From: an uncultured Gammaproteobacteria bacterium | GTDB taxonomy: Bacteria > Patescibacteriota > Patescibacteriia > 2-12-FULL-60-25 | DNA: 51,276 nucleotides | Reading direction: 5' to 3' | Assembly: GCA_964359565.1 (NCBI GenBank) | Contig: CAYHTN010000001.1 | Coordinates: forward strand, 1-51,276 | Shown: positions 7,270 to 33,120 of the stretch, one piece after another | How positions within the stretch are numbered: position 1 is the first letter of the stretch | How the letters are laid out: each line of letters starts with the position of its first letter | Notes under the pieces: generated by a model | Seen by the model: the letters and a program-made list of their open reading frames with translations, nothing else | What the model was told of the DNA's origin: nothing | Database searches by the model: none | Made by a program: the position numbers and the translations under genes

Positions 7270-7274
7270 CACTG

Positions 7275-11193: not shown

Positions 11194-11231
11194 AAAGCAT
11201 GACGAGAATTGGATGGTATCAACTTACAGAC

Positions 11232-11771: not shown

Positions 11772-12427
11772 TCGTCGTGGATCGCCTTCGGCGTCGATAG
11801 CGTCTCAAAGATGGTTCTCAAGGATCAGCACAAGCGTCATAGCAGCGTCGTCGACTACGAATACTGCCGTAGCGCGTGTTACGAGGCAGAAATTCAGGTC
11901 GAACTCCTCCTGCTTGTAGGTTTCGAGACAGGAGGTTTACGTCCTGACCTCGAGGCCATCTTCTATGCGATGCAAAATGTCTATGGTCACTACCATGTCA
12001 TCATCCGACCCTATCTCGCCAAACTGGATCTCCCGGGCGGTAAGAGATGGGTACAGGATGAAGGAATGCGCGCCCGCTACCTCCAGGATCCCGAGAGCCT
12101 GAGTGATCTCGAATACTCGATGCTCCTTACGACCACTACCGCTCCGCGGGTACTGCATCGTTTCCGTGGGAATCTCCTGTTTCTCTTGCTTCAACTGGTC
12201 ATTTTGCCGCAGGGTTGGGCCAACCCGCCAATTCTGCCGATCTCGCGCCGCTTCCCTCTTCTCGCGAAACTCGCTCGCGCATTCAATGCCTATATGCCTC
12301 CAGATCGCTGAAAGGAGACTCTCTTCCTTAGCCGCTCGCTTCACGAAAACCTCTGCTCGTGAACCGTGCGGCCATTTTCGTATGAAGACCTCTCTGAGGG
12401 AATAAATAAATGTTCTCTCCCTTCCTA

Positions 12428-13267: not shown

Positions 13268-13321
13268 TTTTAACGAACAAATATTTCACTATTTTCATAA
13301 TAGAGCTATCTAGAGCAAAAA

Positions 13322-13333
13322 ATAGATATCTAT
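13322..13333. promoter_or_regulatory. 12-bp perfect palindrome ATAGATATCTAT in the TrmB/radical-SAM divergent spacer (candidate operator)
   Basis: Read directly from the sequence. Lies 55 nt upstream of the TrmB start and 90 nt upstream of the radical SAM start. Confidence 0.3.
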
Positions 13334-13422
13334 CTTGATCGGTTGAGATAACAATTTAATAAACTTCGGTAGACTTCTCACATAACCTGGGTTATCCACC
13401 CGCACTTTCCCCGGAGGATCTC

Positions 13423-14886: not shown

Positions 14887-14990
14887 CCTCTTGACCGTAC
14901 GTTTCTCGAGCATCTGCTCGCGATGCGATATGGTCATTCTTTTATGACCATTATCTGATTGAGTGTTTGTAGGATATAATTCAGAATTAT

Positions 14991-16301
14991 ATGAACTCTG
15001 AGAATTTTGATGATCTCTTTGGGGAAAAGATTGACGACACGCCTCCTTCCGAAGGTGACGCCATCGATCAAATACCCGCCTCTCTTCTTCCGGGATTGTC
15101 AGGAGAGGTGAAAGCAAAATACCGCGCGCTCGTTCGCGTGATCTGCCAAAGACATCCAGCCTGGTCGCCTGAGCATACGATCGACGAGATTCGCCGCGTC
15201 GAAGCAGCCTGCAATTACTCCTTTTATCAAGTCCAGTACAATGCTCCGCCGCAAAGCCCGGGCGAAATGATGAATCATCGTCGAGCGCTGCGCGCGAAAA
15301 AACTACTTGATCTGCTCGAGCCCGATGAAACAATGGAGCTAGAGGCCATCGAAGACGTCATCAGAAACATGGGAGAGTGGGTGGCCCATGCAACCGGGGA
15401 TTTGGCCGCAGAAGTCGAGCAAAATTTCGTTGATCTCGCTATCTATGGCGCTCAAGTTGGCATCCATAATCGGGCCGAAATTCAGGACATTCTCATCAAC
15501 GGACCGCACATTGAAGGCTTTGAAGCAAATGAAGATTCGACCTGTACGAATGAAGAGGTCCGCGCCATCCTAAAAGATCTCTTTGGCGAACAGATGTATC
15601 GTCGCGCCAAAATTGTACGTATCTCCAAAGATGATCAGTACCTCATTCATCGCACCGCCAATGATCCTCTTCACATCAAGGAAGGAAACGAGCTCCTCGC
15701 CCGCGGTCTCGTCGTGCGTTCAGGGACCTTTTTAGCCGCCAAAGATCGCGCCTCTTACCTTGAAGCGGAGTGTTTCTTAGAGGGAATCGATGATCCAGCG
15801 GAGTTACGACATATCTATAAATTGCGCGCACAAGTGACCGGCGCAAAAGACTACAACGTCATTCAACTCAGTAGCTTTGGGATCGAACAATCGCGTGATT
15901 ACGACTATCTCGCCGATCTTGAAGACCTCACAGAAGCAGAAAAGATGCGTCTTTACATTCTCAGCACGCTTGTCCATGAGTTTGGACATGCGTTTGAATT
16001 ACAAATTCCTCGTGCAGATTTCCAGACCTATCAAGGCATCATCGAAGAGGAGTTCGCTCCCGAACTTCGCCCTAAGTTTGTAAGCGATTACGTCTTACGG
16101 CACGAAGAACTCTATCGCAGCAGCGAGAACTTGCTCGCTCGTGAAGATATCGCCGAAGCTATTCGCATTTACACGGTGAATCCAGCCTATCTTGAACGTC
16201 ACTTTCCCCTTCGCCTGGCGTTCATCAAGGAGCATTTCCCGTTTATCAAGATGGGTGGACTCAGAGAAAGAGCACCTCTACCTGACCTCTTGGAAAGTTG
16301 A
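14991..16301 (+). CDS. hypothetical HExxH (zincin-like) protein
   Basis: 436 aa with an acidic N-terminus and a single LVHEFGHAFE motif at about residue 333. Host-like G+C (28/60 at 15001-15060). Confidence 0.6.
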   Translation: MNSENFDDLFGEKIDDTPPSEGDAIDQIPASLLPGLSGEVKAKYRALVRVICQRHPAWSPEHTIDEIRRVEAACNYSFYQVQYNAPPQSPGEMMNHRRALRAKKLLDLLEPDETMELEAIEDVIRNMGEWVAHATGDLAAEVEQNFVDLAIYGAQVGIHNRAEIQDILINGPHIEGFEANEDSTCTNEEVRAILKDLFGEQMYRRAKIVRISKDDQYLIHRTANDPLHIKEGNELLARGLVVRSGTFLAAKDRASYLEAECFLEGIDDPAELRHIYKLRAQVTGAKDYNVIQLSSFGIEQSRDYDYLADLEDLTEAEKMRLYILSTLVHEFGHAFELQIPRADFQTYQGIIEEEFAPELRPKFVSDYVLRHEELYRSSENLLAREDIAEAIRIYTVNPAYLERHFPLRLAFIKEHFPFIKMGGLRERAPLPDLLES

Positions 16302-19043: not shown

Positions 19044-19757
19044 TTACGTTCGAAATTGTTTTTTGTGACCATGCCAGGCGCGAACACGGGCGAGAATGGC
19101 AGCAGCGTAGGTAGGATCACGATCGGCAACTGCAAGCGCTTCCTCAATTCGTTCTTGCCAATGCGGGTGAGACGCGTCAAGTTGACGACGATAGATCTCG
19201 TGCCAATCATCTAAATCATCTAACTGTTCTTCGATAAAAACAGTTCGATCGAATCCGTAAGAAGGAAGGGAACGGCTTGCCTCTTCACGAGAAATATCTA
19301 CAGACGTTTCTGTATTTAAAGAAGTACTGGGACGTTTCCCACGAAGAACTAGTTCTGAACGTACCATTTCAACGCGTTGGACTTGAGCTGGCTCAAGCGG
19401 CTGCGTGCTCGCCTCAAGCAACGCCTGCCACTCTTGCCACTCCTCCTCTAATTCACGATCATCTTTCGTACTGACTTCTAAACGTCGTACCGCATTTCCA
19501 AGAACAGAGCGGATTGATTCAAGCGAACGACACTCTTGTTGCAACGAAACAGCATCTAGATCATTCACGTGTGCCGCAAAATAGTTTAAAGATCGTTCGT
19601 AGGTCGCAAGAAGTTCATTTAAATCGTGGCCCAAGCGCGCATGTTCATCGACGAGAACTTTTTGCCATGTGCGAATATGAGCCCGAGAGGTATCGAGAGA
19701 GACTTCTGGTTCTGATGGATTTTGGCCACGCCATTTTTTAAACAAAGAGGAAAACAT
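19044..19757 (-). CDS. hypothetical acidic coiled-coil protein (last gene of the envelope operon)
   Basis: 237 aa with no signal peptide or TM helix and E/L/R-rich heptad-like stretches. Lies 10 nt downstream of the 824-aa gene. Confidence 0.6.
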   Translation of the reverse strand: MFSSLFKKWRGQNPSEPEVSLDTSRAHIRTWQKVLVDEHARLGHDLNELLATYERSLNYFAAHVNDLDAVSLQQECRSLESIRSVLGNAVRRLEVSTKDDRELEEEWQEWQALLEASTQPLEPAQVQRVEMVRSELVLRGKRPSTSLNTETSVDISREEASRSLPSYGFDRTVFIEEQLDDLDDWHEIYRRQLDASHPHWQERIEEALAVADRDPTYAAAILARVRAWHGHKKQFRT

Positions 19758-19767
19758 AGGAAAAACA

Positions 19768-22242
19768 TTAGCGACGCTTTGGTGCTGGCTGGCGCTTTTT
19801 TGCTGGCACGGTTGAGGTCGTGCTCGTAGACGAGGCCGGCGTGAGCTTTACCTGATCTTGTTCTAACCGGGCCCGTTTTAGCTCCGCCAACTGCTGTTGT
19901 ACCATTGATTCTTTAGGAAATTGCTTGGCGAGCGACTCAAGCAACGCGATTGCTTCATCAAGACGATTATTCTCGGCGTATAACCGCATGAGCGTCCATC
20001 GAGCGAGAGGAGCCGCGTCTTCTACATGATCTTTCACGAGAGCCTCAAGAAGACGCGTCGCGAGATCACGCTTTCCGGCTTGTTCATACAGGAGAGCAAT
20101 CTGAATCTGTAGCTCTTGGCTTTTGTTTCCTTGTTGCTGCAAGAGCTCGAGTGCTTGTACTGCTTTCAATGTATCTCCTGACAGCAGGGCGAGGCGGGCT
20201 CGACCGGCGGTGGTCGCAGCTAAGTTCGGCTGTAATTCATCCGCTCGATCAAACCACTGGAGTGCTTCACGGGTCGCCTCTTCGAAGCGTAATCGTGCTG
20301 CTGTTTTGACCTGTTCGTCGCTACTCGAAAGCCAGGCCTGCTCGGCTTCGACCCGTTGGAGATAGAGATTTGCGATGAGAAGCGCCCCTTGAGTACCGCT
20401 CGGATTGAGAGACTGGGCCTGCAATAGCCCGGCAATGTCCCCATTCGTTCGTTTAGGGAGCGAGACGAGCAAATTTTGTGTTGAGGCGATCGCAGCGGCA
20501 GCCTGCCAAGATTCAATTCGATCCGGATTCTGCAACCTCGCCTGCGCGTTTAGTCGATCTGCGCGCTCAAGAAGCGCCACGATTTGGGGAAGTTCTGCTG
20601 GGGTCGGATTTTTGGCTAAGCGCGTGCGCGCTTCTTGCGCATACGCTTGTGAGAGAAGGCTGGTATAGATATCCGTCCACGGATTCCACGCATGTGCAAG
20701 CGCCAGATTACGCTGTGAAGCCCGATAGCTCTGCGCTTCAAGCGCTCCCTTGCCTTCGACAAAAAGACGCTCGGCTAAAAACCGTTGCATCCCCACCCAA
20801 GAACAGAGAAAGGCTGCGAGGACGGCGATAGAAAGAGGCAAAATTCCCTTCACGGGATGATCGAAGCGAAAAGTGCGCGCCTGTATTTTCGTCGTTTGAG
20901 TCACGAAAAGCAAGGCGCTCAGAAGCCAGAAAAAGAACACTTGGGTGAGTGCAAACGGAAGACTCATCCAAAGAGCGATATTGCTCACCCATAGGGCTAA
21001 GAGAATGGGTTTCCATCTCGCAAGCGAAGAAGAAGATGGTTCATGCCCACGTCGCAGCAAGATCATGGCTGGAAAAAACAACCAGGTGAGCCATACGAGA
21101 ATCCCAAAAATCCCCGTCGTCCCGACAACCGTCGCGACACTCGAAGCGCCGTGAAAAAAACGGACGTTCGCAAACGGAGATTGATTAAGCGCCGGATCAC
21201 GTTCTTGTAAAAATAAGTTAACCCACGTACCTGCCCCGCGACCTCGTAATGGATATTCTTGAAATCCTTTGACCGCCATCGACCAAGAGGGCCCTGTCCC
21301 GAGCGTAACCTCGGCAGGAACGGTGAGCGAAATACGATTCCCAAACAAACGCCACGGATTCCAGCCCGGCGAGAACAAAGCTAGAACGGCGGATCCAAGG
21401 CAAAGAATCGCGACCATAAGCGCAGCAAGACGTAAACGTCGTCCTTCAAGAAAGACGACGAGAATACCGACACCAAGAGCCAGCGAGAACCACAGAGCCG
21501 GGCTTTCAACTGCGCCAATCAGCGTGAGACTTGGGAGTAATAACAGGACGGCTCCGATACGAAGGAACCGTGTCCTGTTCTTTCGCGTTTCTCCAAAGAG
21601 TTTGGCACCTTGAAGCAGCATTGCGAAAGAAAAAACGACCATCGGCACCAGAAAGATAGCGACCTCACTGACAGAGCCTAGGGGGGTCATCGAACGAAAA
21701 AGAGGTAATGACCAGGGCCAAATCGTTTTTCCTACGAGCCATGCGATCGTTCCCCAGGCAAAGAGCCCGGCCGATACAAACCAAACTCCAAGAACGAGCA
21801 AGAATCGAAGAGGCGCGTTTACTAATCGACGAATCGCAAGCCACCAAGCCGCTCCAGCGAGCATCGTGATGACGGCCGTTGGGATTTGTTTGGTAATCCC
21901 AACCCAGGAGCCATAAGGGTCACGGGAAGCGATTGCGAGGAGTACGAGCACCCCCATGCTCGTGAAGATGATCTTGCTATAGCGGTCCCAAGCAAGATGC
22001 CAGGCTCCTCGTAAGGCGTCCTGAACGACAAACAAACACCAAACGAGTCCGGCCGAAACAACCAGCACCGTTTGTTTAGGAAGTTCGGTAGTATCAAGTT
22101 GCGTTCGTGAAAAAATCCAAGGCAAACAGCCAACCACCATGAGTAAAAGAGAGAAAGCGGCTTGCTCAAGCCCCCACGCCAGACGTGAAATAAAAGCGTG
22201 AGGCCCGATATGATGCGGAAAGAGCGACTCTGACATAGACAC
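19768..22242 (-). CDS. polytopic O-antigen-ligase-like (Wzy_C-type) membrane protein fused to C-terminal TPR repeats
   Basis: 824 aa. About 12 hydrophobic helices occupy the first ~480 aa, followed by A/L/Q-rich TPR-like repeats and a basic tail (PAKKRQPAPKRR). Confidence 0.75.
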   Translation of the reverse strand: MSMSESLFPHHIGPHAFISRLAWGLEQAAFSLLLMVVGCLPWIFSRTQLDTTELPKQTVLVVSAGLVWCLFVVQDALRGAWHLAWDRYSKIIFTSMGVLVLLAIASRDPYGSWVGITKQIPTAVITMLAGAAWWLAIRRLVNAPLRFLLVLGVWFVSAGLFAWGTIAWLVGKTIWPWSLPLFRSMTPLGSVSEVAIFLVPMVVFSFAMLLQGAKLFGETRKNRTRFLRIGAVLLLLPSLTLIGAVESPALWFSLALGVGILVVFLEGRRLRLAALMVAILCLGSAVLALFSPGWNPWRLFGNRISLTVPAEVTLGTGPSWSMAVKGFQEYPLRGRGAGTWVNLFLQERDPALNQSPFANVRFFHGASSVATVVGTTGIFGILVWLTWLFFPAMILLRRGHEPSSSSLARWKPILLALWVSNIALWMSLPFALTQVFFFWLLSALLFVTQTTKIQARTFRFDHPVKGILPLSIAVLAAFLCSWVGMQRFLAERLFVEGKGALEAQSYRASQRNLALAHAWNPWTDIYTSLLSQAYAQEARTRLAKNPTPAELPQIVALLERADRLNAQARLQNPDRIESWQAAAAIASTQNLLVSLPKRTNGDIAGLLQAQSLNPSGTQGALLIANLYLQRVEAEQAWLSSSDEQVKTAARLRFEEATREALQWFDRADELQPNLAATTAGRARLALLSGDTLKAVQALELLQQQGNKSQELQIQIALLYEQAGKRDLATRLLEALVKDHVEDAAPLARWTLMRLYAENNRLDEAIALLESLAKQFPKESMVQQQLAELKRARLEQDQVKLTPASSTSTTSTVPAKKRQPAPKRR

Positions 22243-22267
22243 GCCTTAGTATAGCGCGTGTCCGATC

Positions 22268-25200
22268 TTAAGGCGATGCAGGTGCTGATACTTCTTCTAC
22301 AGGCGTACGATTCTCAGACACCGACTCCGATGGTGAAGATGGCTGAGCCTCGACGGAAACATCCGATGGACTCTCTGTCACGACCGGGGGCGCAATCACA
22401 ACCGGCTCGGTCTCCGCCGGTACTGGTACAGGCTCCTCTTTAGACTCGACGACGGGCGCCATCGGAGCCGGAGGAGTGGTTGGATCTTCTTCCATAACGG
22501 GCGTAGAGACAGGAATGAGCTCTGGATCAAGATGGATCGCTTCTGGGATAGGAGGATCTGGAATCACGACTGTCGGTTCTTCTTCGGGATCTTGAGGGAT
22601 GAGACTCCCCGTGTCGATATCGACATCACGAATCGTTCCGTCTGAGAGCGGCACCCGACTCTGTTCCATGGTCATGCCTTCGACGCGCCACGAGAAGGTC
22701 ACTTCGTGCAATTGTTTTTCCTTCAAAATAATATCAAAGCCTTCATGAGAATAACCATCTGTCCACCAACCGCCGCTGACTTCTCCATAGGGAGTAATCT
22801 GTACAAGTGGATAGGAGCCGACTGAGGGGAACTTCACGTGCACCTTTTGTCCTCCCGTGGTCACGCGCGCAAGTCCTTGATAGACCTTCGCTTCTTCCGG
22901 CGATGGTGAGTCTACTGATGCCGTGGCAGCGGTAACTTGTTTTTCTTTCTCAGAACCACCCCACCAACCGGTATGGACGAATACCTCGATCGAACCGACG
23001 CCGCTCTCGCTATACCCTTCCAACGCCTGACCAACGACCGGACCCGCCTTCGTCGCTTTGATCGCGACTCCTGGGATTGTCGAAGGCGCTAACAGATCGC
23101 CGACCAAGATGGCTCCATTCGAGGTTGAAACTTTGGTTGGCACACGACCAGCCAACGCGATCGGATAGGTCGAGGTCGCTGGGGCACCCGCAACAAACGC
23201 CGGACGGGTCGAAACGATTCCCATCGGAATAAGTGTCGTATTCGCTGAACGTTGAACGTGAAGACGACCTTGTTGACTCACGACGACCACGTCTCCTGGA
23301 GTCAACGCGTCTGGAGAATAATAGCGTTCCGCAAAGTCATACGAATCGTTCGCTTGCCAACCATCGGCGTTCGTTGCCATGTAGGTCGTCGAAGCATCGC
23401 GATCGTCTAAGAAAATATATTTGCTATTTTGTATCGAACCTTGCGCTGAAGGATAGAGACGGCCACCTAAAAAGAAGTCGCCTTGAATACGCGTATTGCC
23501 GTCCTGATCGATGGCGAACAGCGTCGAACTCGACTGACGGATCGACCACTGTGAAGAGGTGGCCGAAAGGCTATTTGTGCTTAAAAGATAGTCTTGCATC
23601 AGCGCTTGCGACCCATCCCAGGCGCTACCACGGAAGGTCAGGCCCCAGGAATCAGCATTACGTGCAGCTGCTGTAGCCGCCTCACGAGCATTAATCGCAA
23701 GATCACCATTTATGGTTGCTTCTCTGCCGTTATTTGCAAGCAGCGCACCCGCTTCGTATCCGACTTTCACAAATACTTCGATGGTTGAGGTTGTTGAAGT
23801 GGCTTCAAGCGCATAGCCAATGATCCGACCTGGTTGTGTTGCCTTCATGGCAACGCCGGGATAGATCGAGCTTGTGAGCGGATCACCGATGGCAATCGCA
23901 CCATTGATCGCTGAGAATTTTGTGGGCACACGTCCGGCGAGAGCAATTTCTTTGCCGCCATCGAGACCCAAGATAAAACCTGGCGCGGTTGAGACAATTC
24001 CCATGAGTCGTTGGTCGTAGGCAACCCCGGGACTACGCATCGCCTGAAGAGGGGTGGTTGGATCAAATGACACGAGATCCCCAGGTTCTACCGCTCCATT
24101 AATTTGATAACGTTCAGCCAAGTCGTAAGCCCCTCCGGTCACGGAGCCTTCTGCCACAATGCTCGCGCTCGAGGCTGACGCTGATGGACACGTTTTTGCC
24201 GTGCTTAAATCATCGATACAAATTCCGTGTGTCACGGTCGGGGTCGCTTCATTGTTATAGCCAAGCACCATCCGATAGTTTATCGATCCTGTCGCGTTCA
24301 CCGAACCACCGACAAGTAAATTATTAATATACGCTCCCCAAGCGGTATTTGTCGTTGTCGCGGCGGTATTTACGATCTCGACGGCAATTTGGGTCGAACT
24401 CGCCGTGACGCCGAGCCCATCGGTCGCAAGCCCTCCCACCACAGACACCCCGCGAAGGAAGTAGCCCAACCCATTAAACGTAGATTTATTTCTCACATCT
24501 AACGCCCCTGCATCCACCGCATGTGCTTTTACCCCTCCCACTTCAGCGCTAACCAGAGAATAGATGCTGATACCACTGCCCGTAGGAACAAAGAATTCAC
24601 TCCCCGCAACATCAACCGCTCCACCGCCTCCACTCGGCGTTAAACTTTGGAGAACAGCGATATTTGAAGGATCGGCCGCGTCTAAAACGCTGACTTCGTA
24701 GGTACTTGTCCCTACATTATACAAACTGGCATAGATGTAACGTCCACGGATGACCGGTGGATTGTTTACCAATCGACCAAAGGTATATGAACCGAGTTGA
24801 ACGACTCCCCCAGGATTAGTAACATCGAGAAGTGTTAATGCATAGCTTGTTGCACTGATCACTCTAATGACCGCCAAACGCGTCCCCTCTATCGCCGCCA
24901 TTGTTGGACTGGCCAAGGTAATATCCGAAACGAGCGTGATATTAAGAGGGTTAGAAACATCTACCACCCGAACCATATTCGCATCCTGGTCGGTCAAATA
25001 GGCATATCTGCCCTGTACCGTTCCTCCGCTCACCTTTGTCACGGCACTAAACGTCCCCAATACACGTACTTGCATGGGATCAGAAACATCAAGGATTTTT
25101 AATATCGTGTCATAGCCGACATACAATTTGTGACCCTGTAGCGAGAGGAAGGTCACTGTTGCTCCGCCAGAAAAATTCCATGCCGAGACGATTCTTGGTT

Positions 25201-26197
25201 GTCGTGGATTAGAAATATCAATAATACGAACGACACTTGAATCTGCACCGTAGACATAGTTCCCTCCTACCTCAAGACGATTCATGTAAGGAGAGGCGAG
25301 TTGGCCAACCGAACCCGACCCCGTCATCCCTCCAAGATCGATAACATCAAGGGTACGGGCACTGCTCAACGCATAACCGTATCTTCCATGCACTTTAAGA
25401 TCAAACACACCGCTGAAGGTACCGACCGACGTGGTCGTCGCGATGGTAAGAGCCAAATTGGAATCGATCAAGGCTTTAAACTGACCATTTTTTGTGATCG
25501 CATATCCTGTTCCTGTCGCACTGCCTGCCGCGTTTAGTGTATAGACCGCACTGCCTGCCGCATTGAGAGCACGGATTGAAAAATCATTCACGGCCGACGT
25601 TCCTTGATTCCGCACTTCCAGTGCCGTTCTGGTCGCGCCGGCGGCAGCACTGTCCGCTTGATGGATCACGAACATGGCGCCCGAAGTGATACTCGTACTC
25701 GAAGCAGACATCCCCTGAAGCTGTTCCGCGTTAAAGGCTTGCGGCACCGCTCCGATCCGTTTGCGCGGTGTCATTTCTGACGCATCTGGACTTACGGTCA
25801 CACCTAGATAGAGAGAATCGGTATTCCAATCAATGCCGGTTAAAGCAACCTGCCATCCACCGGCACTCGACGTATCTCCAAGCATGATAGTGAACAAACC
25901 CCCCGCCACGTTTACTGGGATCGTGGTCGGAAGAGCAGGCGTCCCTGAAGCAGTCCAGAGCGCTGTCCCACCCGTAGCCGCACTATAAAGGGAGAACTTC
26001 ATTTGATACGTTCCGTCCGTGACTGGTTGTCCGAAGGCATCCAATAACTTCGCTTGGTAATTAATTTGTCGGTTGATACCAGAGGCCTGCGCCGTTGATG
26101 TCTGGAATCCTACTACCCCTCCAATCACAAGAAAGAACCCGAATCCGATAACGGACCAGGTTTTTGCCAGGGACCAAAGAGAGCGAATCAAAGACAT
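22268..26197 (-). CDS. giant surface protein: N-terminal anchor, LVIVD-repeat beta-propeller, two tandem autoproteolysis-like modules, Pro/Glu-rich tail
   Basis: 1309 aa.
- N-terminal TM/signal segment (VIGFGFFLVIGGVVG).
- Repeats of the LVIVD type: LDVIDLGG, VRIIDISNPRQP, LKILDVSDPMQV, VRVVDVSNPLNI, LTLLDVTNPGG, VSVLDAADPSNI.
- Duplicated ~120-aa modules starting YDLAERY and YDFAERY.
- PE-rich C-terminus. Confidence 0.85.
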   Translation of the reverse strand: MSLIRSLWSLAKTWSVIGFGFFLVIGGVVGFQTSTAQASGINRQINYQAKLLDAFGQPVTDGTYQMKFSLYSAATGGTALWTASGTPALPTTIPVNVAGGLFTIMLGDTSSAGGWQVALTGIDWNTDSLYLGVTVSPDASEMTPRKRIGAVPQAFNAEQLQGMSASSTSITSGAMFVIHQADSAAAGATRTALEVRNQGTSAVNDFSIRALNAAGSAVYTLNAAGSATGTGYAITKNGQFKALIDSNLALTIATTTSVGTFSGVFDLKVHGRYGYALSSARTLDVIDLGGMTGSGSVGQLASPYMNRLEVGGNYVYGADSSVVRIIDISNPRQPRIVSAWNFSGGATVTFLSLQGHKLYVGYDTILKILDVSDPMQVRVLGTFSAVTKVSGGTVQGRYAYLTDQDANMVRVVDVSNPLNITLVSDITLASPTMAAIEGTRLAVIRVISATSYALTLLDVTNPGGVVQLGSYTFGRLVNNPPVIRGRYIYASLYNVGTSTYEVSVLDAADPSNIAVLQSLTPSGGGGAVDVAGSEFFVPTGSGISIYSLVSAEVGGVKAHAVDAGALDVRNKSTFNGLGYFLRGVSVVGGLATDGLGVTASSTQIAVEIVNTAATTTNTAWGAYINNLLVGGSVNATGSINYRMVLGYNNEATPTVTHGICIDDLSTAKTCPSASASSASIVAEGSVTGGAYDLAERYQINGAVEPGDLVSFDPTTPLQAMRSPGVAYDQRLMGIVSTAPGFILGLDGGKEIALAGRVPTKFSAINGAIAIGDPLTSSIYPGVAMKATQPGRIIGYALEATSTTSTIEVFVKVGYEAGALLANNGREATINGDLAINAREAATAAARNADSWGLTFRGSAWDGSQALMQDYLLSTNSLSATSSQWSIRQSSSTLFAIDQDGNTRIQGDFFLGGRLYPSAQGSIQNSKYIFLDDRDASTTYMATNADGWQANDSYDFAERYYSPDALTPGDVVVVSQQGRLHVQRSANTTLIPMGIVSTRPAFVAGAPATSTYPIALAGRVPTKVSTSNGAILVGDLLAPSTIPGVAIKATKAGPVVGQALEGYSESGVGSIEVFVHTGWWGGSEKEKQVTAATASVDSPSPEEAKVYQGLARVTTGGQKVHVKFPSVGSYPLVQITPYGEVSGGWWTDGYSHEGFDIILKEKQLHEVTFSWRVEGMTMEQSRVPLSDGTIRDVDIDTGSLIPQDPEEEPTVVIPDPPIPEAIHLDPELIPVSTPVMEEDPTTPPAPMAPVVESKEEPVPVPAETEPVVIAPPVVTESPSDVSVEAQPSSPSESVSENRTPVEEVSAPASP

Positions 26198-26305
26198 ACC
26201 CTACGGAACAAAACAGAGATACCGCCCGGTTCGAGCGATATCCCTAGTATAGAGGACTTTAGCTAATCTCTTACTTTTGGCTAAAATTGGCTCTATAGTA
26301 TGTTG

Positions 26306-26327
26306 ATATCTTGTGTATATCTTGTGT
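26306..26327. repeat. tandem 11-mer ATATCTTGTGT x2, next to a consensus DnaA box (26339-26347)
   Basis: Read directly from the sequence. Located in the only sizeable spacer (150 bp) inside the envelope operon, upstream of the 1309-aa gene. Confidence 0.7.
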
Positions 26328-26347
26328 GTAACCTGTGTTGTGGATAA

Positions 26348-29300
26348 CTACGCATCCTTGCCTCTTTGCTTTGAGAGCCCGACTTTTTGGTCGATAATTG
26401 TTTCTTTGGCCTGACGTAAATCGATGTCCTGGGAAACAAATTTATCGTAGCCGATCTTTTCGGCCGTGATGTAATACAGGCCCTTCCCGGCAAAGAAGCC
26501 ATATTTCCCTTTCTGATCGGTAATTTGCGTCTCTAACAGCTTGTTAAACTTCTTATCGAAGACACGAATAATGGCGCGCTCAAGCGGCTGTTTCGAACCC
26601 ATATCGTAGGCGATGCCCCAATCTTTTAATTTCGGAGGTAAAGCCAAACGGCGGAACAAGAAGTAGGAAACGAGCTGCACGCCGAACAATCCACCGGTAA
26701 CCACCGAGGGCGCGATCGCAAACGCACCCACGGAGACCGCCGTCCCAACGACGCCTACAAGGCTCTGCGCTCGACGCAAACGCCCTTGCCAGATGATCTT
26801 TGCGGGCGGTAATTCGCGTACGATCGGATCGATGGGGATGTTCGGTGTGAGTAACGCCCCATCTTTTGCCGTGATAATTTCCCCATGATAAAGGTCTAAG
26901 AAGTCTCCGTCTTCTTTTTCTGCTTTGAGATAAGCTGAGGGATACGTGTAATTGGGCTTCAGCACCTGTACCCGATACTGTCCGGGTGGTGCTATAAAAG
27001 AAAAGCGTCCTTGCGCATCTGTGATGCGCGTTTGTACCACCACCCCCGAACCCGCGTGCACAAGACGGGCGATTGCAAGCTCAATCGGCTGTTTACTCAG
27101 AGCATTATAAATCGTGCCCCACTTCTTTCGTTTGCGTCGACGAATCAGTAAGAGCGGTTGCGTAAATAAGAACCGAGCATAATTGAGCGCAGAAAAAGAA
27201 GATACGGCTGTCGCCGTTACTGCGACCGATGCAACCGCGACCGTTGGAGCCACAATCAACTTGGTTGCATCCTGTACGGCTGACGTTTCACTCAGATCTC
27301 GTAAAATTTGCGCAGCGATGCTTGTTTGCCCTAAAAGAGCCGCGGTATTTTCGCCAAGACTTGCATCCGCACTCAGAACTTCTGATAATGGCCTCAATTC
27401 TTTCGTGAGCGTAATAGGGAGAGCAAGCACCTGATCACGAACTTCTATCGCACGTTCAATCGAGCGGAATCCCACCTTACTCACCCGCAGACGATAGCTC
27501 CCTTGTGGCATCATAAATCCATAGACCCCGTCCTCTCCCGTAGTAAAGGGATTCTGCATTCGGAATGGCTCCGCCGCCCAACGACTTCCGTCCGCACGCA
27601 GCACCTCGACGAGCGCCTTATGAATCGCAGGAGTGTGGTCACGCTGCATCAACGTCCCTTCACGCACGATCCCAAAGGGACGGGTACGAATCGTTCCGAT
27701 TTCTCGACGACGCGAGCCATTTTCATACTGCAATAGAACTTCGTAGGGAATATCACGGATTTCGGCCGAGGACATGACCGTCGTCTCCCAAGCGAGATCA
27801 GAAGCGCGTCCGGTCAATAAGTAAAGCGACTCTCCAACTCGGAGCTGTCCTCCCGTCGGTGTTTGCCCAGAGGGCTGTAAAGAAATACGAAAGAGCATGG
27901 CACGCGAAGGTAAGATCGTACGGACCATTTGTATTGGCAAAAGCTCTAGTGCCCCACTCGCAACATAAACGTGCGTCTGCACCTGTCCGTCAAACGGAAG
28001 GACTGTTCTTCCCTCAGGAGAGTCAGACGACCCATCTGTACGCGCATCTCCTTCTAAAGGCATAAGCACACTAAGCGGACTCGTTGCTGGACTCACGCCT
28101 GCCGGCAGAGGGATTGGCGTCGTGATATCCGGTGTCAAAAGAGAATCCGTTGAGCCGAGACCGGGGGCTCGTCCCGGTATGGTGATAGCAGCACCTGGTG
28201 CTCCACCAACCGTAGGCGTCGGTCCTACTGGCGACCTTGGTCCATTGTCTGCCGAATCGGGCGGAGGAGACACGAGCGCTCCTGGGTCGAGCGGAGGAAG
28301 CGCTGCAGGAGGTGGCGCTGCGGGTTCGAGCTCGGGAGTTGCCGCGCCACGCTCTGTCCGTGCACTTGTGAATGCTCCACTTGAAGCATTCCCTGAAGGG
28401 TCTAGGGCAAAAATCGTATAATAATAAACTGTATCATCAAGAAGACCCGTGTCTACAAGACTTGTATCCGTTCCGGTATAAACCAATCGCCCTTCGCGGG
28501 GTGACATGGGAGGGCCAGACAAGCTCGCACGCACCATCAGATAATCACCGTCTTCAAGTGGCGGGTTCGCCCACATCACTTTTATAGATCGTCTATATCC
28601 AAAAGACATGACATTTAATGGATTTGGAGGTGCTGTTCGATCTTCGGCGGTACGAAACGTGAGGTTGACCGGAGGGGAGGTGAGTCCGGTCGCCTCTTGA
28701 GCGGTGATCTCGATGTTATATTCGGTTCCGGCACGCAAGCCCCTGAATGTCGCGGCATGCGAGCGTGTTGACGCTGCCTCGGTCATGATTTGGGAACTTC
28801 CTACTCCTATCACAACAGGGGTCAATCTGATGGTCCCAATCGCATCAATGTCGGTATCAAAAAGGACCGTGACAGCTCGATCTGTGATCGACGTGACTCG
28901 AGCATTCGAAATAATCGGTGCATGCGGTACGGCGATCGTGCGAAATGAGATGGTTCCGATACCGACAATGTCAGACGGCGTTTGAGAACGAACACGTACG
29001 TGATAGGTCCGCTCTGGCAAAAGATCCGCGATGCGAATGCGATGTTCACGGGTAAGCGGTGCGCTTTCGGCTCGCAATCCTCCATACGACATCGTCTCAC
29101 CATATTCAACCTGCCGGTTGGCGCTCGCGCTAGTTTCCCAGACAACAGTCGCGTCATTCCAGCGAATCGTTTCAAGACGAAGATTGGAAATGGTTAATAT
29201 TGGCGGGGGTAGAGCTGTCGGATCTCCCGCTGCACTCGCTCCACCACCCGCACCGCCACTTCCCCCACTCGATGCCGACGGAACGGTCGCTGTCACGGTG

Positions 29301-29845
29301 ACCACATCATTATTTACAATCTGAACAAAGAAAGTCCCCCCCTCGAAGGGGGTACGTATGAGAAACCGATAAAGACCTGGAATTAAAGGGTTCGTGATTC
29401 GCACCGATCCTCCGCTCACATGCAGTCCAATACTCACGATAATTTTACTTCCTGCAGGTAATCCTGCTACTCCGGCATTCGTCGGTACTTGAAATCTCAA
29501 TGTCTGTCCTGACACACTCACTCCCCAAATACTACTCGCTGAACCACCCGCCAATGTCGCGGTCGTTTCGAGACCGGTTGATGGTCCATATGAGAGAGAT
29601 ATATCACTTGGGACTAGCGCTGGGATCGTAAAAGCTGCCGGAAAAACAATCTCTATCGTATTTCCCGCCGATGTTAGTGCGGTGGGAATGGTCGCCCGAA
29701 TGGTATGGTCTACGGCCGTATTCGTGAGTGAACGCGAAAGCTGATCTTGCATCGCAGAAATATTTGCTGCATACACCGTGTTAATTGAAAAGAGAACGCT
29801 CAAACAACTCAACCAACACACGATAAGACCACGTAGCTTCTTCAT
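26348..29845 (-). CDS. giant surface protein: signal peptide, FN3-like domains, Pro-rich linker, three carboxypeptidase-regulatory-like domains, internal TM pairs
   Basis: 1165 aa.
- Signal peptide ending VYA/AN.
- FN3/PAP-N-like segments (ISNLRLETIRWNDATVVWETSA...YHVRVRS).
- Gly-rich and Pro-rich linkers.
- Three G-x-Y/F beta-sandwich motifs (GVYGFMMPQGSYRLRVSKVGF, GRFSFIAPPGQYRVQVLKPNY, GKYGFFAGKGLYYITAEKIGY).
- Hydrophobic helix pairs at about residues 863-900 and 1028-1065. Confidence 0.85.
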   Translation of the reverse strand: MKKLRGLIVCWLSCLSVLFSINTVYAANISAMQDQLSRSLTNTAVDHTIRATIPTALTSAGNTIEIVFPAAFTIPALVPSDISLSYGPSTGLETTATLAGGSASSIWGVSVSGQTLRFQVPTNAGVAGLPAGSKIIVSIGLHVSGGSVRITNPLIPGLYRFLIRTPFEGGTFFVQIVNNDVVTVTATVPSASSGGSGGAGGGASAAGDPTALPPPILTISNLRLETIRWNDATVVWETSASANRQVEYGETMSYGGLRAESAPLTREHRIRIADLLPERTYHVRVRSQTPSDIVGIGTISFRTIAVPHAPIISNARVTSITDRAVTVLFDTDIDAIGTIRLTPVVIGVGSSQIMTEAASTRSHAATFRGLRAGTEYNIEITAQEATGLTSPPVNLTFRTAEDRTAPPNPLNVMSFGYRRSIKVMWANPPLEDGDYLMVRASLSGPPMSPREGRLVYTGTDTSLVDTGLLDDTVYYYTIFALDPSGNASSGAFTSARTERGAATPELEPAAPPPAALPPLDPGALVSPPPDSADNGPRSPVGPTPTVGGAPGAAITIPGRAPGLGSTDSLLTPDITTPIPLPAGVSPATSPLSVLMPLEGDARTDGSSDSPEGRTVLPFDGQVQTHVYVASGALELLPIQMVRTILPSRAMLFRISLQPSGQTPTGGQLRVGESLYLLTGRASDLAWETTVMSSAEIRDIPYEVLLQYENGSRRREIGTIRTRPFGIVREGTLMQRDHTPAIHKALVEVLRADGSRWAAEPFRMQNPFTTGEDGVYGFMMPQGSYRLRVSKVGFRSIERAIEVRDQVLALPITLTKELRPLSEVLSADASLGENTAALLGQTSIAAQILRDLSETSAVQDATKLIVAPTVAVASVAVTATAVSSFSALNYARFLFTQPLLLIRRRKRKKWGTIYNALSKQPIELAIARLVHAGSGVVVQTRITDAQGRFSFIAPPGQYRVQVLKPNYTYPSAYLKAEKEDGDFLDLYHGEIITAKDGALLTPNIPIDPIVRELPPAKIIWQGRLRRAQSLVGVVGTAVSVGAFAIAPSVVTGGLFGVQLVSYFLFRRLALPPKLKDWGIAYDMGSKQPLERAIIRVFDKKFNKLLETQITDQKGKYGFFAGKGLYYITAEKIGYDKFVSQDIDLRQAKETIIDQKVGLSKQRGKDA

Positions 29846-30804
29846 ACGGAGGCACGCACAAAACGACGAATCAACTGACGACGTATCCCATAAAGCACAA
29901 TGATCAGTGCGAAGACTATTCCCGCGAAGAGCGCCATCAGACGCACTGGCCAGATCGAGATACGAAAAAGCTCTGTCGTCGGAAGTCCGTTCCCATGACT
30001 TGGCTCAAACGAGAGCGTATAAGGTCCAAACCCACCATTCGAAAGCTCTCCTCCCACCATCGCCCAAAAACCCGCTTCCACTCCTGGTGGATGGTTTTGC
30101 CATACGTGTGAAAAACTTCGACGCGAACCTGACAAAATCCGAGAACCCGTAGGATTAAATGGAATGCGGCTGCGTTCTCTTCCAAACATATTTCGAACCA
30201 CGAGCGTCCCTTGAGGAATCGCATAACTCCCTCCCTGGTTTTCAACCGTGGCTTGGATCAGCACAGGAAGTTGTGTGAACCAAGATGCTGGTCGATTGAC
30301 CCACGTAAAGGCAAGATGTTCTTCCTGCACCGCTCCCACCCGTAAAAATACCAGGATCCCGGTTCGGACTCCCACCCCGACGCCTGAGTCCGGAGGAGCT
30401 GGAGCAACGGTCGAAACAAAGATCGCCTCTTGGACACTGCCACGAGGGGCCTCCGCCGGAACACGAATAGTAAAGGAGATACGTTCTTGCCGACCTGGTG
30501 TAAGCAATACAGAGGACTTCGAAAGATATGTCCAGGTTGGTAAACCGCTCGTTTCTGTAACAGGTAGAAACGATTGGTCTCCATCCTCCCCTTGAGGAAG
30601 AAACTTCTGAATCGAGAAGTAATAGGATTGCGACTGGCGTTCATCGTTTGTAATAAGAAAAGAGGCGTTGATGGACTGTCCTGGTTCTGCCACGAGATCA
30701 AGAATAGCCGGCTCTACCGCTAACGCACGTGCCTCACGAATGCCAAGACTAAAAAAAATAAAAACCAAGAGTGATGTCAGGACCGACAAAAAAATGCCGC
30801 GCAT
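29842..30804 (-). CDS. secreted two-domain protein with C-terminal TM anchor (DUF916/DUF3324-like architecture, tentative)
   Basis: Start moved to the ATG at 30804 (MRGIFLSVLTSLLVFIFFSLGIREARALA is a signal peptide); the tracked 30912 start overlaps the upstream gene. C-terminal helix LMALFAGIVFALIIVLYGI plus RRQLIRR. There is a 4-nt overlap with the next gene. Confidence 0.75.
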   Translation of the reverse strand: MRGIFLSVLTSLLVFIFFSLGIREARALAVEPAILDLVAEPGQSINASFLITNDERQSQSYYFSIQKFLPQGEDGDQSFLPVTETSGLPTWTYLSKSSVLLTPGRQERISFTIRVPAEAPRGSVQEAIFVSTVAPAPPDSGVGVGVRTGILVFLRVGAVQEEHLAFTWVNRPASWFTQLPVLIQATVENQGGSYAIPQGTLVVRNMFGRERSRIPFNPTGSRILSGSRRSFSHVWQNHPPGVEAGFWAMVGGELSNGGFGPYTLSFEPSHGNGLPTTELFRISIWPVRLMALFAGIVFALIIVLYGIRRQLIRRFVRASV

Positions 30805-30808
30805 ACAG

Positions 30809-31753
30809 TTAATACCTTGGGGTAAGGGTATAAAAGACGGTCTGAGAATAGGATCCGGGGGCCGTGCTCGTGGCCACGGCAAGTTTAAATAGCTGGGCGG
30901 TTTGATCGCCACTCATGGTTATTTCGTCCGAGATCGTTGGCGACGATTGCACTAATCGAGGTGTTGTTGTCACACCGAAGTCCGTTCCTGGAGACACCGT
31001 TCGCATCCCTATTCCCATAGAGCCATACTCTTCGACTCCCACGGTCACCGCACCGTCCGTCACTGCTGCGATTGGTGAACCTCCACCATTTACAAGATTG
31101 GTGAGCCCCTGCATGTACACAAGATATCCGCTCGGAGCTGTTGAATGAACCAGTATTCGCAGTACCAACGTCGGCTGGCTTGTCGATACAACCGCTCCAA
31201 AGGGGAGAGCGGTCCCACTCAAGCGAAAAACCCCATCATTCCCGCCTGAAGGGACCGGACTCAATGGTCCAGAAGTTTGGAAATTCATCACAGTGATTTT
31301 ACTCCCAACGATCGAAGAGATCTCTCCAATCGCCGTCGCTTGAGCAAAGCCGCTATTTTCGACGACCGCAATCGTATTCCCAACCGAAAAAGCTCCTGGA
31401 GTCGTGACGGTGACCGTTCCCAGACCAGTATCCACCGCCGAGTACGTAGAGTCATATGTTGAAGTCGCAGACTGTGCCGCCACGGCGATAGAAATCCGAT
31501 CGATATTCTCACCTGCACGATATCCAGCCGATAATTTATACGCACTGCCGGTAGAAGTCCCTGCCGCAACTCCTCCAATCGTGTCATGAATTCTATACGC
31601 TGAAGAAGTTGCCGCTTCATTGCCACCGGCATTCAATGAGTCCCAGTCGATACGATAGTTCAAACTCGACATCGCCATCGCCGTTGAAGCAAGGCTAGAA
31701 AAAAGAAGTACCCCAAAAAGAACACGCCAAAGCATGGCATCAGTATAAAGCAT
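30809..31753 (-). CDS. secreted beta-rich protein (first gene of the envelope operon)
   Basis: 314 aa. Signal peptide (LFGVLLFSSLASTAMA), repeated S-x-x-Y-[RK]-[IL] motifs near the N-terminus and a C-terminal APGSYSQTVFYTLTPRY. An ATG at 31735 is an alternative start. Confidence 0.75.
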   Translation of the reverse strand: MLYTDAMLWRVLFGVLLFSSLASTAMAMSSLNYRIDWDSLNAGGNEAATSSAYRIHDTIGGVAAGTSTGSAYKLSAGYRAGENIDRISIAVAAQSATSTYDSTYSAVDTGLGTVTVTTPGAFSVGNTIAVVENSGFAQATAIGEISSIVGSKITVMNFQTSGPLSPVPSGGNDGVFRLSGTALPFGAVVSTSQPTLVLRILVHSTAPSGYLVYMQGLTNLVNGGGSPIAAVTDGAVTVGVEEYGSMGIGMRTVSPGTDFGVTTTPRLVQSSPTISDEITMSGDQTAQLFKLAVATSTAPGSYSQTVFYTLTPRY

Positions 31754-32123
31754 TTTAGACCGTCAGACGATCCACACTTAAATACAAAAAACGTTCGATC
31801 TTAGGCTATGTGACTAGGCTCCTCTAAATGAGTCGTAAAATAAATATATTTTACACGACACCTCTTCAAAAATACTTACGTTCGTAAAAAATCATCTAAT
31901 ACACTTCGCCTTGAACGAGTAATTCTTCCCAATGCAACTTTACAGACTACAACGTCACACCATTTGCCTTTCAACATCCTAAAATTGACAGACAATACCT
32001 ATTATACCAATAAAAAACATCGGATGAGTCTGAACTCAATCTCTCAGACGCACTTCGATGTTAAAACAACAAACAAAGCTGGGCTCTCATCATTATTTTT
32101 GACAAGATGAACAGATATGCTAC

Positions 32124-32423
32124 TTATCCACAGTAAAAATCTTAAAAAGATGGCATATTCTATTTATACACAGCCTTATCCACAGATAAATGACACTATC
32201 GAAGATAGCTAGAAAATTGTTTCACATGAAACATCTCATTTTAAAACTTATCCACAGAGTCTAACTTGAGATCGCGGGCTTGATATTAACCAGACTAGAA
32301 AACGTGATGAATATATTAACATATACACATCTTATCCACAGATATGAAAGTATCTGTCAAACAGCCTATCTACGATACTTTATGTAGTTTTTACATATCA
32401 AAAAATTACAAAACTGTGGATAA
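32124..32423. promoter_or_regulatory. cluster of five perfect DnaA boxes in an AT-rich spacer (candidate oriC or DnaA-binding locus)
   Basis: TTATCCACA at 32124-32132, 32176-32184, 32248-32256 and 32332-32340; TGTGGATAA at 32415-32423. All five share the extended 11-mer CTTATCCACAG. A one-mismatch box, TTATACACA, lies at 32164-32172. Confidence 0.6.
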
Positions 32424-32660
32424 GTTTTTCTATCGCATGCATTACTACTGTTCCGGTAATCATACTTGCTTAGGTAAACAGACGACCTGAATAACCAGGT
32501 ATTAGAACATTAAGACGACAAGCGTCCTAGCTAGTAGGAGTCCGAGGCTCATAATCACAAACGAACGTTTACAAAAACCCCTCTCCCTAAAAAGGGGAAA
32601 AAATGATCGTCGTAAAGAGCCTTACTGAGCAATCTTAAGGATGACTGGGTGTTTAGTGCT

Positions 32661-32688
32661 AAAAAATACAATCTCACTGATCAGTGAG
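32661..32688 (-). terminator. hairpin plus T-run on the minus strand, about 165 nt downstream of tRNA-Ala(CGC)
   Basis: 16-bp palindrome CTCACTGATCAGTGAG (32673-32688), followed on the minus strand by ATTGTATTTTTT. Confidence 0.45.
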
Positions 32689-32852
32689 GCGTATCTGGCG
32701 GGGCATGCAGATCAACTTGTTTTCAACCACGAACGTTACGTCCTGCGCTAAAACGGATTCCAAAATGGACCTATTGGCTGCGTCACCGCTATAGAATGCG
32801 GTAGGTGTGGACCACAACGAAAAAACCACCCTATTCAGGCATGGTCCTTGCG

Positions 32853-32928
32853 TGGTGGACTGGAGGGGAGTCGAACCCCTGACCTCTGCAATGCGAATGC
32901 AGCGCTCTACCAACTGAGCTACCAGCCC
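32853..32928 (-). tRNA. tRNA-Ala(CGC), CCA encoded
   Basis: Hand-folded 76-nt cloverleaf: GGGCTGG/CCAGTCC acceptor with G3:U70, anticodon loop UUCGCAU, T-loop TTCGACT. Confidence 0.9.
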
Positions 32929-33120
32929 ATAAATTGTATCGTGACCCTCATCCAGATTTATTCATCATCATTTAGCTTAGATAAATGTTTCACGTGAAAC
33001 ATTTCAAATGTGGCTAACCTGACACAGGTTATACAATAAATTCTCTGTAGATCCTACTAAGTAGAGAAACAAAGCTAAGGTGTGTTAAATCCATCTCTCT
33101 AACCACCGAGCTGAGCTCGG

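Follow-up and report, generated by a model that had tools for sequence, protein, structure and literature searches.

Bacteria of the Candidate Phyla Radiation (CPR, Patescibacteria) are thought to live attached to host cells, and their attachment organelles are almost unknown. The closest described counterpart of the locus analysed here is the Pam pilus, which was solved only in 2026 and from one cultivated species of the Saccharimonadia, Candidatus Mycosynbacter amalyticus, for which two filaments were solved and the pam operon was defined (Troman et al., bioRxiv 10.64898/2026.03.03.709456). We compared this system with a six-gene cluster, called the module below, at positions 19044-31753 on the minus strand of contig CAYHTN010000001.1 (assembly GCA_964359565.1); the whole stretch of 51,276 nucleotides (nt) that was analysed is referred to as the window. 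In the Pam system the pilins PamA, PamB and PamE consist of a nine-stranded N-domain, a linker that acts as donor strand and a truncated immunoglobulin (Ig) C-domain, and carry paired cysteines. PamT is the tip subunit. PamC and PamD, two PapD/FimC-like chaperones, each carry a transmembrane (TM) helix at the C-terminus, and PamR is a tether of 32.8 kDa with tandem FnIII domains and a C-terminal TM helix, whose N-terminus was proposed to insert into the last pilin. A tail fibre-like protein is a consistent neighbour of pam operons, and PamA carries an extra, unexplained density on Ser356. The reported distribution covers Saccharimonadia and Microgenomatia, and the main text of that study does not mention Uhrbacteria or Parcubacteria (all bioRxiv 10.64898/2026.03.03.709456). 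A second point of reference is given by the WxL clusters of Firmicutes, in which a WxLIP protein (DUF916-DUF3324-TM) is encoded together with a small secreted surface protein and at least one large one (Hassan et al., Protein Sci 2023, PMC10599100).

The fold predictions, gene order and profile comparisons described below suggest that the module probably represents the Pam pilus of the CPR in a divergent, Uhrbacteria-type form, that is, an usher-less fibre built by chaperone-assisted β-strand complementation, and that it probably serves attachment to a host cell. A preliminary description of this DNA, made from the sequence alone, had proposed an envelope operon for a surface appendage or attachment system in a reduced-genome, possibly episymbiotic organism. 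Our results support this reading and place the organism in the CPR: the named, metagenomic homologues of genes 1, 2 and 5 are assigned to Candidatus Uhrbacteria or the Patescibacteria group; Uhrbacteria belong to the Parcubacteria group of the CPR. The six packed open reading frames (ORFs) of that description were found again, with spacings from gene 1 to gene 6 of 4, -4, 150, 25 and 10 nt (a negative value is an overlap), and the 12.7-kb module occupies about 25% of the 51.3-kb window, so that the earlier figure of a quarter holds. The system had also been put forward as uncharacterised, a reading that a clear match to a characterised system would refute. The likeness to Pam refutes it in part, but the match is distant and below curated cut-offs and the gene content differs, and the locus is thus not simply one that is already known.

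The pilin-like subunit and its chaperone

Gene 1 (30809-31753, 314 amino acids (aa) in the ORF list; all module features lie on the minus strand) begins with a signal peptide recognised in the sequence (aa 1-27). It is followed by a segment with three S-x-N-Y amphipathic strands, delimited by family conservation (aa 28-82, 31508-31672), by an inserted β domain in the AlphaFold2 (AF2) model (aa 83-170) and by a C-terminal domain (aa 171-314, 30812-31243) which AF2, Foldseek and the Pam_pilin_C model point to as a pilin domain of incomplete Ig type. Compared with the NCBIfam models NF058579 (PamT) and NF058581 (Pam_pilin_C), the protein gives E 1.2e-8 and 34.6 bits for PamT and E 0.35 and 10.9 bits for Pam_pilin_C, the latter aligned over aa 180-314; the curated cut-offs of 240 and 55 bits were not reached. 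PamT is matched by all 27 members of the gene 1 family (best 7e-16) and Pam_pilin_C by 13 of the 27 (best 1e-9). A hidden Markov model (HMM) of the family retrieved 2096 cluster representatives among 1.84 billion proteins, which puts the PamT-like subunit clusters, counted at 50% identity, at more than 2000. Many of these matches are proteins of 205-245 aa that correspond to gene 1 minus its middle domain and fall in the size class of PamT; among the 76 that were tested, 70 matched PamT (best 2.8e-22) and 56 matched Pam_pilin_C. The profile comparisons indicate that the gene 1 family is homologous to the Pam subunits, yet its proteins are no members by the thresholds of the curators.

The AF2 model of gene 1 (pLDDT, the predicted local distance difference test, 75; alignment of 27 sequences) is confident for aa 83-314. 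Its best folds in the PDB according to Foldseek are CfaB (prob 1.0, E 4.6e-3), followed by CsuA/B and FimI. Modelling and profiles together show gene 1 to be a subunit exported by the Sec pathway, with the incomplete Ig fold of Pam pilins and chaperone-usher subunits in its C-terminal domain, and the statement in the preliminary description that no pilin signature is visible has to be withdrawn. In the monomer model aa 20-82 have a pLDDT below 50, though aa 28-82 form the most conserved stretch of the family. On inspection, each S-x-N-Y motif has hydrophobic residues at alternating positions, and the segment also occurs joined to unrelated C-terminal parts, for example in the 888-aa protein P0185. 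A conserved, apparently unfolded and amphipathic N-terminal segment of this kind lends indirect support to donor-strand exchange into a filament. Direct sequence searches of the PDB with genes 1, 2 and 4 gave nothing significant, and the PamA/PamB entries 25PZ and 25QA were matched in neither of the two PDB copies that were searched.

Gene 2 (29842-30804, 320 aa counted from the ATG) starts 4 nt behind gene 1; its longest form, from a GTG (29842-30912), would overlap gene 1. A signal peptide and a C-terminal TM helix (aa 287-319, 29848-29946) were found as earlier described, and the AF2 model (pLDDT 78) together with hydropathy places two β-sandwich domains between them. With Foldseek the model matched CfaA (2.5e-11) and WxLIP of Enterococcus (5.6e-11; PDB 9i25, 9i1y), and also CsuC, FaeE, FimC, Caf1M and PapD, all with prob 1.0. 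The Firmicutes WxLIP is as near in fold to gene 2 as the Gram-negative chaperone-usher chaperones are. At the sequence level, two relatives of gene 2 match a fimbrial chaperone model at E 0.075; otherwise no similarity to chaperone-usher proteins was seen, and no chaperone or tether model of NCBIfam was detectable in gene 2. The model shows a two-domain chaperone fold of the PapD/CfaA/WxLIP type, held at the membrane by the C-terminal helix. An anchored PapD-like chaperone next to a pilin-like subunit is the logic of the Pam pilus, and the assembly logic, which had been called one that cannot be named, can be given this name.

The fold of gene 2 could also be read as that of a WxLIP in a static surface complex. 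In this scenario gene 2 would bind small and large partners by hairpin insertion and display them on the wall, and no filament would be formed, as in WxL clusters, which also join one small and one large secreted protein with WxLIP. The WxLIP structures 9i25 and 9i1y fit gene 2 no worse than those of the chaperone-usher chaperones, and the Pfam model WxLIP_PGBD (DUF916), which had been proposed as a check together with DUF3324, is matched at E≤1 by 10 of 14 members of the gene 2 family (best 8.6e-4). The window protein itself gives E 0.19 and 12.2 bits, below the cut-off of 27.3, and Pfam finds no DUF3324 in it. Against such a complex, genes 1, 3 and 4 show neither a WxL domain (Pfam) nor a dual W-x-L motif, the WxLIP_PGBD scores stay under the cut-off, and gene 1 is homologous to the subunits of an experimentally solved filament. 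We consider a WxL-type complex quite improbable.

The giant proteins, the distal genes and the conserved gene order

Gene 3 (26348-29845, 1165 aa) contains a conserved N-terminal domain delimited by orthologue comparison (aa 27-190), FN3/Pur_ac_phosph_N repeats assigned by Pfam (aa 229-497) and followed by a Pro-rich linker, and two repeated units (aa 863-1010 and 1028-1165), each composed of a hydrophobic segment, a basic patch and a CarboxypepD_reg domain according to Pfam and hydropathy. The Pfam matches are fn3, Pur_ac_phosph_N and three copies of CarboxypepD_reg, in agreement with the domains first described, and the internal repeat has 39% identity (E 6e-14). The outer half of the protein is strongly variable among orthologues, whereas the membrane-proximal half and the N-terminal domain are conserved, the latter being kept in all orthologues, even in those where the rest of the outer half is not. 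The N-terminal domain has no match in the PDB. A further pilin domain at this position is unsupported (hhalign to gene 1, prob 0.4). Shorter orthologues, such as the 696-aa protein of locus L025 (related loci are numbered L001 to L027), end in a single TM helix, and a PHROG search with gene 3 returned generic FN3 tail-fibre families only. By analogy, gene 3 is a candidate for a secreted, membrane-anchored stalk or tether corresponding to PamR.

The conservation of the gene 3 N-terminus allows a second use of strand complementation, in which no polymer is made. Gene 1 would be a PamT-type cap that is locked, with help of gene 2, onto the N-terminus of gene 3, so that one gene 3 stalk of FN3 repeats and Pro-rich linker carries one gene 1 head and gene 4 is a separate adhesin. 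Such a capped fibril would be in agreement with the much better fit of gene 1 to the tip-pilin model PamT than to Pam_pilin_C, with the lack of a second pilin gene in the window, with the retention of the N-terminal domain in all gene 3 orthologues despite the variability around it, and with the Pam model, in which the N-terminus of PamR inserts into the last pilin. Genes 1, 2 and 3 are furthermore translationally coupled (4 and -4 nt) and the sole strong hairpin lies behind gene 3; roughly equal production of the three proteins is therefore favoured, which keeps a capped fibril alive. On the other hand, it leaves the conserved, unfolded and modular S-x-N-Y segment with no obvious role, and the separate major pilin found in loci L001, L018, L019 and L027 shows that the ancestral system polymerised. 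We regard the capped fibril as a serious but unlikely alternative to a filament of gene 1 subunits.

The secreted product of gene 4 (22268-26197, 1309 aa) shows a conserved N-terminal domain (aa 39-170), an LVIVD β-propeller (about aa 300-550, Pfam E 1.6e-12), a duplicated module resembling phi29 gp12 and Peptidase_G2 (aa 690-817 and 952-1081, 47% identity, E 7e-31) and a tail rich in Pro and Glu (aa 1200-1309); both the propeller and the duplication had been recognised in the preliminary description. A profile of the duplicated module matches the autochaperone of the phi29 pre-neck appendage (3gqh) with E 0.031, and the alignment begins at residue 1 of 3gqh. Ten module copies were compared with Pfam, of which three match Peptidase_G2 (PF11962; best 2.1e-4) and four Phage_cement_2. 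The module starts with D-x-A-E-[RY]-[YF], which lines up with the first residues of the cleaved gp12 autochaperone, and a G-[IV]-V-S motif comes next. In contrast to gp12, where it is C-terminal, it is duplicated and internal, and the similarity is very weak. The labels tail-fibre-like and autoprocessing-like thus seem reasonable but weak. A PHROG search with gene 4 gave nothing. The orthologues have 1044-3343 aa and stand behind gene 3 in almost all loci.

For gene 5 (19768-22242, 824 aa; the database copy begins two codons later and has 822 aa) hydropathy predicts about 13 TM helices (aa 22-486), with a loop at aa 292-366 that carries an invariant G-x-G-A-G-T-W motif, and Pfam finds TPR repeats at about aa 557-792. 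From hydropathy and the positive-inside rule we infer that the loop is external and the TPR domain extracytoplasmic. Of the earlier assignment as a Wzy_C-like protein with TPR repeats, the TPR part stands; Wzy_C (PF04932) does not match the window protein even at E≤10 and was found in three of eight orthologues (best E 1.6e-5), with a precomputed weak match in P0033. A search of the PDB with the gene 5 profile returned TPR proteins only and no ligase structure. Enzymes of the O-antigen ligase family (PilO/TfpO, PglL; Pfam Wzy_C) are known to O-glycosylate pilins. As in those systems, the pilus subunit gene has as its neighbour a gene for a polytopic protein that is Wzy_C-like and has a large external loop; the differences are that gene 5 lacks a Wzy_C match and is fused to a long external TPR domain, and that the module has no genes for glycan synthesis. 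A Wzy_C-like/TPR component is present, as the preliminary description said, and the role as glycan ligase at which it hinted appears plausible for gene 5. The product of gene 6 (19044-19757, 237 aa) is acidic and helical, and is predicted from its sequence to be cytoplasmic, with neither a signal peptide nor a TM segment. It has no match in Pfam, NCBIfam, PHROG or the PDB and no detectable relative outside its orthologues.

The same gene order was found in more than 20 contigs, nearly all of Candidatus Uhrbacteria, so that the families do co-occur in other genomes, as the proposed synteny check had asked. The loci were located with a subset alignment of gene 1, the full alignment being too variable for a contig scan; a scan with the gene 5 alignment recovered no relative. 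Every product of the module has homologues. The order of genes 1-2-3-4(-5) occurs in L001, L002, L004, L005 and L007-L024, with 30-60% amino acid identity and with flanks that vary. L004 and L005 have all six genes in this order, and L006 has genes 4-6; genes 1-4 are found in L001, L002 and almost all of the 18 loci from GTDB representatives (L007-L024). A gene 5-like gene follows gene 4 in all six loci whose contig extends that far (L004, L005, L006, L020, L021 and L022). Orthologues of gene 6 stand right behind gene 5 only in L004, L005 and L006, which are closer relatives of the window, and no gene 6 homologue was found behind the gene 5-like genes of L021 and L022. In L006 (GCA_964418045.1) the gene 6 homologue is followed downstream by 13 consecutive genes for proteins of 150-190 aa (4873-14107), 12 of them on the same strand and without a Pfam match, which look like a tandemly amplified family of paralogues.

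The clustering is far beyond chance association, and because the flanks differ from locus to locus the genes travel as a module. An extra two-domain, pilin-like gene lies between genes 1 and 2 in L001, L018, L019 and L027, two chaperone-like genes, comparable to PamC and PamD, occur in L012 and L015, where the gene order is rearranged, and L019 lacks gene 3. Gene 4 stands behind gene 3 (or gene 2) at nearly every locus despite deep divergence. This includes the distant contigs L025 and L027, in which the same core is arranged around a short PamT-like gene; the core thus reaches beyond the Uhrbacteria clade.

Transcription signals and genomic setting

The 150-nt spacer between genes 3 and 4 (26198-26347) contains a hairpin (26214-26246) and a perfect copy of TTATCCACA (26339-26347). 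The hairpin has a GC-rich stem of 15 bp, is followed by a U-run, has a fold z-score of -4.35 and resembles a terminator or an attenuator; from its end to the ATG of gene 4 there are 16 nt. It is conserved in L004; in L005 and L001 the spacer has hairpins of a different kind. An attenuator or stabiliser is more likely than a full stop, and with this hairpin between genes 3 and 4 a single transcript across all six genes, as suggested by the spacings, is unproven. The signal could also separate two adjacent units, a pilus formed by genes 1-3 and an adhesin with glycosylation (genes 4-6) that is transcribed on its own. This would agree with the 15-bp hairpin and U-run and their counterparts in L004, L005 and L001, with the conserved TTATCCACA in the spacer, which could mark a separate control point, with the absence of gene 3 from L019 and the rearrangements in L012 and L015, and with the restriction of gene 6 to a subclade. 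However, gene 4 follows gene 3 (or gene 2) nearly everywhere, L025 and L027 included, canonical pam operons are likewise consistently accompanied by a tail fibre-like protein, and the 16 nt left between the hairpin and the ATG of gene 4 give no room for a promoter beyond it. Two separate units are unlikely in our view.

Upstream of gene 1 lies an AT-rich (38% GC), non-coding region (31754-32855, minus strand) that is a candidate promoter or regulatory region. At 32124-32423, 370-670 nt from gene 1, it holds five perfect copies of the DnaA-box 9-mer TTATCCACA and one with a single mismatch. The whole window has ten perfect copies, compared to about 0.4 expected from base composition, and 20 when one mismatch is allowed, compared to 7.9 in shuffled sequences. 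The other perfect copies include one right behind the stop of gene 3 and three at 2005-2070. In the spacer between genes 3 and 4, TTATCCACA is found in the same orientation in L001, L008, L009, L010, L014 and L024. The cluster may reflect DnaA-linked regulation or titration. As an origin of replication the cluster at 32 kb is unlikely, the cumulative GC skew having its minimum at about 44 kb beside dnaN/dnaA.

A second repeated element is the 16-nt palindrome TGTTTCACGTGAAACA, with two copies in the window (32218-32233, near-perfect, and 32986-33001) compared to 0.04 expected. In the relatives, the region upstream of the gene 1 homologue contains the palindrome in 5-10 copies or has TTATCCACA boxes, 1-3 in number. 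The 5-10 palindromes are perfect copies within about 1.2 kb, spaced at about 40-140 nt (L001 8350-10000, L010 9000-10000, L014 8900-10000; also L007, L011, L013 and L024). In those loci of 16-21 kb they are confined to this region, where in L001 they alternate with tRNA genes.

The module lies among core chromosomal genes, with dnaA, dnaN, PBP1, polA, a holA-like gene, rpsT and two tRNAs upstream and a deoxynucleoside kinase gene downstream, and the block of PBP1, polA and rpsT followed by the module is seen again in L001. The GC content of the module is like that of its surroundings and uniform over the window. Together, these neighbours and the uniform GC content argue against a mobile or phage origin. 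A prophage remnant or a phage-derived tail-fibre cassette would account for the weak likeness of the gene 4 modules to the phi29 gp12 autochaperone and to phage cement or head-fibre proteins, and for the match of the gene 3 FN3 region to PHROG tail-fibre families. Those PHROG matches are, however, limited to generic FN3 repeats, no capsid, terminase, portal or integrase genes were found in or beside the module, and the chromosomal synteny with PBP1, polA, holA, rpsT and tRNAs is conserved, so that we find a phage origin hardly credible.

The genes dnaN/dnaA are at 43674-46721, and the cumulative GC skew has its minimum and turns at about 44 kb, some 12 kb away from the module; the region around the replication origin is probably contained in the window. 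At the other end of the window a gene for a large serine recombinase (7303-8850, minus strand; Resolvase, Recombinase and Zn_ribbon_recom domains) adjoins a tRNA gene (7194-7266), and the pair (7194-8850) may mark the edge of an integrated element. Two ORFs on opposite strands overlap at 13378-15333 (-) and 13423-14886 (+); the domains (B12-binding, Radical_SAM) are on the plus-strand ORF only, and the 651-aa ORF on the minus strand is probably spurious. Several public records of metagenome-assembled genomes with an Uhrbacteria-type module are titled 'uncultured Gammaproteobacteria bacterium' (L010, L012, L013, L017, L019 and L022), and L018, which also has it, is titled 'Candidatus Methylomirabilis sp.'. 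Judged by gene content, these titles are probably placeholders or binning errors.

Possible mechanism and comparison with known systems

In view of the above, the following assembly pathway can be considered for the Pam-like fibre. After Sec export, gene 1 would be capped at its open groove by the gene 2 chaperone, until a donor strand fills this groove instead. The strand would come from the N-terminal S-x-N-Y segment of a further gene 1 subunit, which would give a homopolymeric fibre, or from the conserved N-terminus of gene 3, which would give the capped fibril. Gene 3 would tether the structure to the membrane, as was proposed for PamR, and gene 4 could be a variable, host-binding adhesin. 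Gene 5 might O-glycosylate exported components, with its external TPR domain holding the substrates, and gene 6 would be a cytoplasmic accessory. The hairpin after gene 3 would probably raise the transcripts of genes 1-3 above the level of genes 4-6.

Several points weigh against a Pam-type filament. Gene 1 is the only pilin-like ORF that the gene 1 family HMM detects in the window, it resembles the tip subunit PamT, which the Pam authors describe as unable to donate a strand, and it contains no cysteines, compared to two to three pairs in PamA and PamB. In view of the likeness to PamT, its polymerisation is no more than a proposal. Genes 1-3 are tightly coupled by a 4-nt gap and a 4-nt overlap, with no hairpin after gene 1, and their output looks more like near-stoichiometric production than like an excess of a major pilin; the terminator-like hairpin moreover parts genes 1-3 from genes 4-6. 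The Foldseek values for gene 1 are modest (4.6e-3; TM-score 0.47 on the target), and none of the curated cut-offs for PamT, Pam_pilin_C and WxLIP_PGBD was reached. Genes 2, 3 and 4 were set beside their M. amalyticus counterparts by description rather than by sequence. Gene 3, with 1165 aa, is 3.7 times the size of PamR and has extra domains and duplicated units of TM segment and CarboxypepD_reg. Finally, the roles proposed for genes 4-6 derive from synteny only.

A broader reading would combine a minimal strand-exchange fibre, of a form not described before, with an ancestral core. A single PamT-like subunit would polymerise via its own triple S-x-N-Y segment, unlike PamA and PamB, which use an inter-domain linker strand. 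The fibre would grow on a giant FN3 tether that has its duplicated transthyretin-like domains on the cytoplasmic side, and the Wzy_C-TPR ligase, dedicated to this task, would decorate it. The four-gene core of PamT-like subunit, TM-anchored chaperone, FN3 tether and tail-fibre-like giant would be the ancestral and most widespread adhesive organelle of the CPR, of which the Pam pilus of M. amalyticus would represent one elaborated branch. We put this combination forward as speculative and rather unlikely.

Several features are shared with the Pam system. The locus comes from a CPR organism, its components are Sec-exported, and Pfam and NCBIfam detected neither an usher nor a secretion ATPase or sortase in the six products and 21 neighbouring ORFs. 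Gene 1 joins a C-terminal, incomplete Ig domain of Pam type to a PamT-like N-terminal region, gene 2 is PapD/FimC-like with a C-terminal TM helix and follows gene 1 at 4 nt, and each of genes 1, 2, 3 and 4 has its parallel, in turn, in PamT/pilin, PamC/D, PamR and the tail-fibre-like neighbour. The module differs in that one pilin-like gene is found here versus PamA, PamB, PamE and PamT, that this PamT-like protein is cysteine-free and has an inserted β domain of about 90 aa, that one chaperone gene replaces the two of pam, and that genes for a Wzy_C-like/TPR protein and a cytoplasmic protein are added. No ATP-synthase genes were found among the scanned neighbours, a scan that did not cover every small ORF of the window. 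In addition, Uhrbacteria, as part of the Parcubacteria group, are outside the reported range of Saccharimonadia and Microgenomatia. The kind of system is now known, and its present form, breadth and accessory genes are not described. A related machinery with a different and simpler parts list is now seen in Uhrbacteria, which extends Pam-type systems to another CPR lineage. The fast-evolving outer halves of genes 3 and 4 are offered as candidates for the host-binding adhesin, and gene 5 as a candidate pilus glycosylation enzyme that could be a source of the density on PamA; the locus also offers candidates for operon control.

With the chaperone-usher pili (Pap/Fim, CFA/I with CfaA-CfaB, and Csu) genes 1 and 2 share the subunit fold and the chaperone fold, and presumably also the principle that the chaperone caps the incomplete Ig fold until a donor strand replaces it. 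They differ in that here there is no outer membrane and no usher, in that the chaperone is TM-anchored whereas theirs are soluble and periplasmic, and in the extra N-terminal and middle parts of gene 1. With the WxL clusters the module has in common a membrane-anchored protein with two Ig-like domains beside small and large secreted proteins, predicted strand or hairpin insertion, and a recurrent, weak WxLIP_PGBD similarity with Foldseek scores level with those of the chaperone-usher chaperones. However, gene 1 belongs to a filament-forming pilin superfamily, and WxL complexes are not known to polymerise. The fold relation between Pam chaperones, chaperone-usher chaperones and the WxLIP of Firmicutes hints at a single ancestral module for strand complementation behind WxL clusters, Pam systems and chaperone-usher pili, an ancient toolkit that would be used in monoderms and diderms alike.

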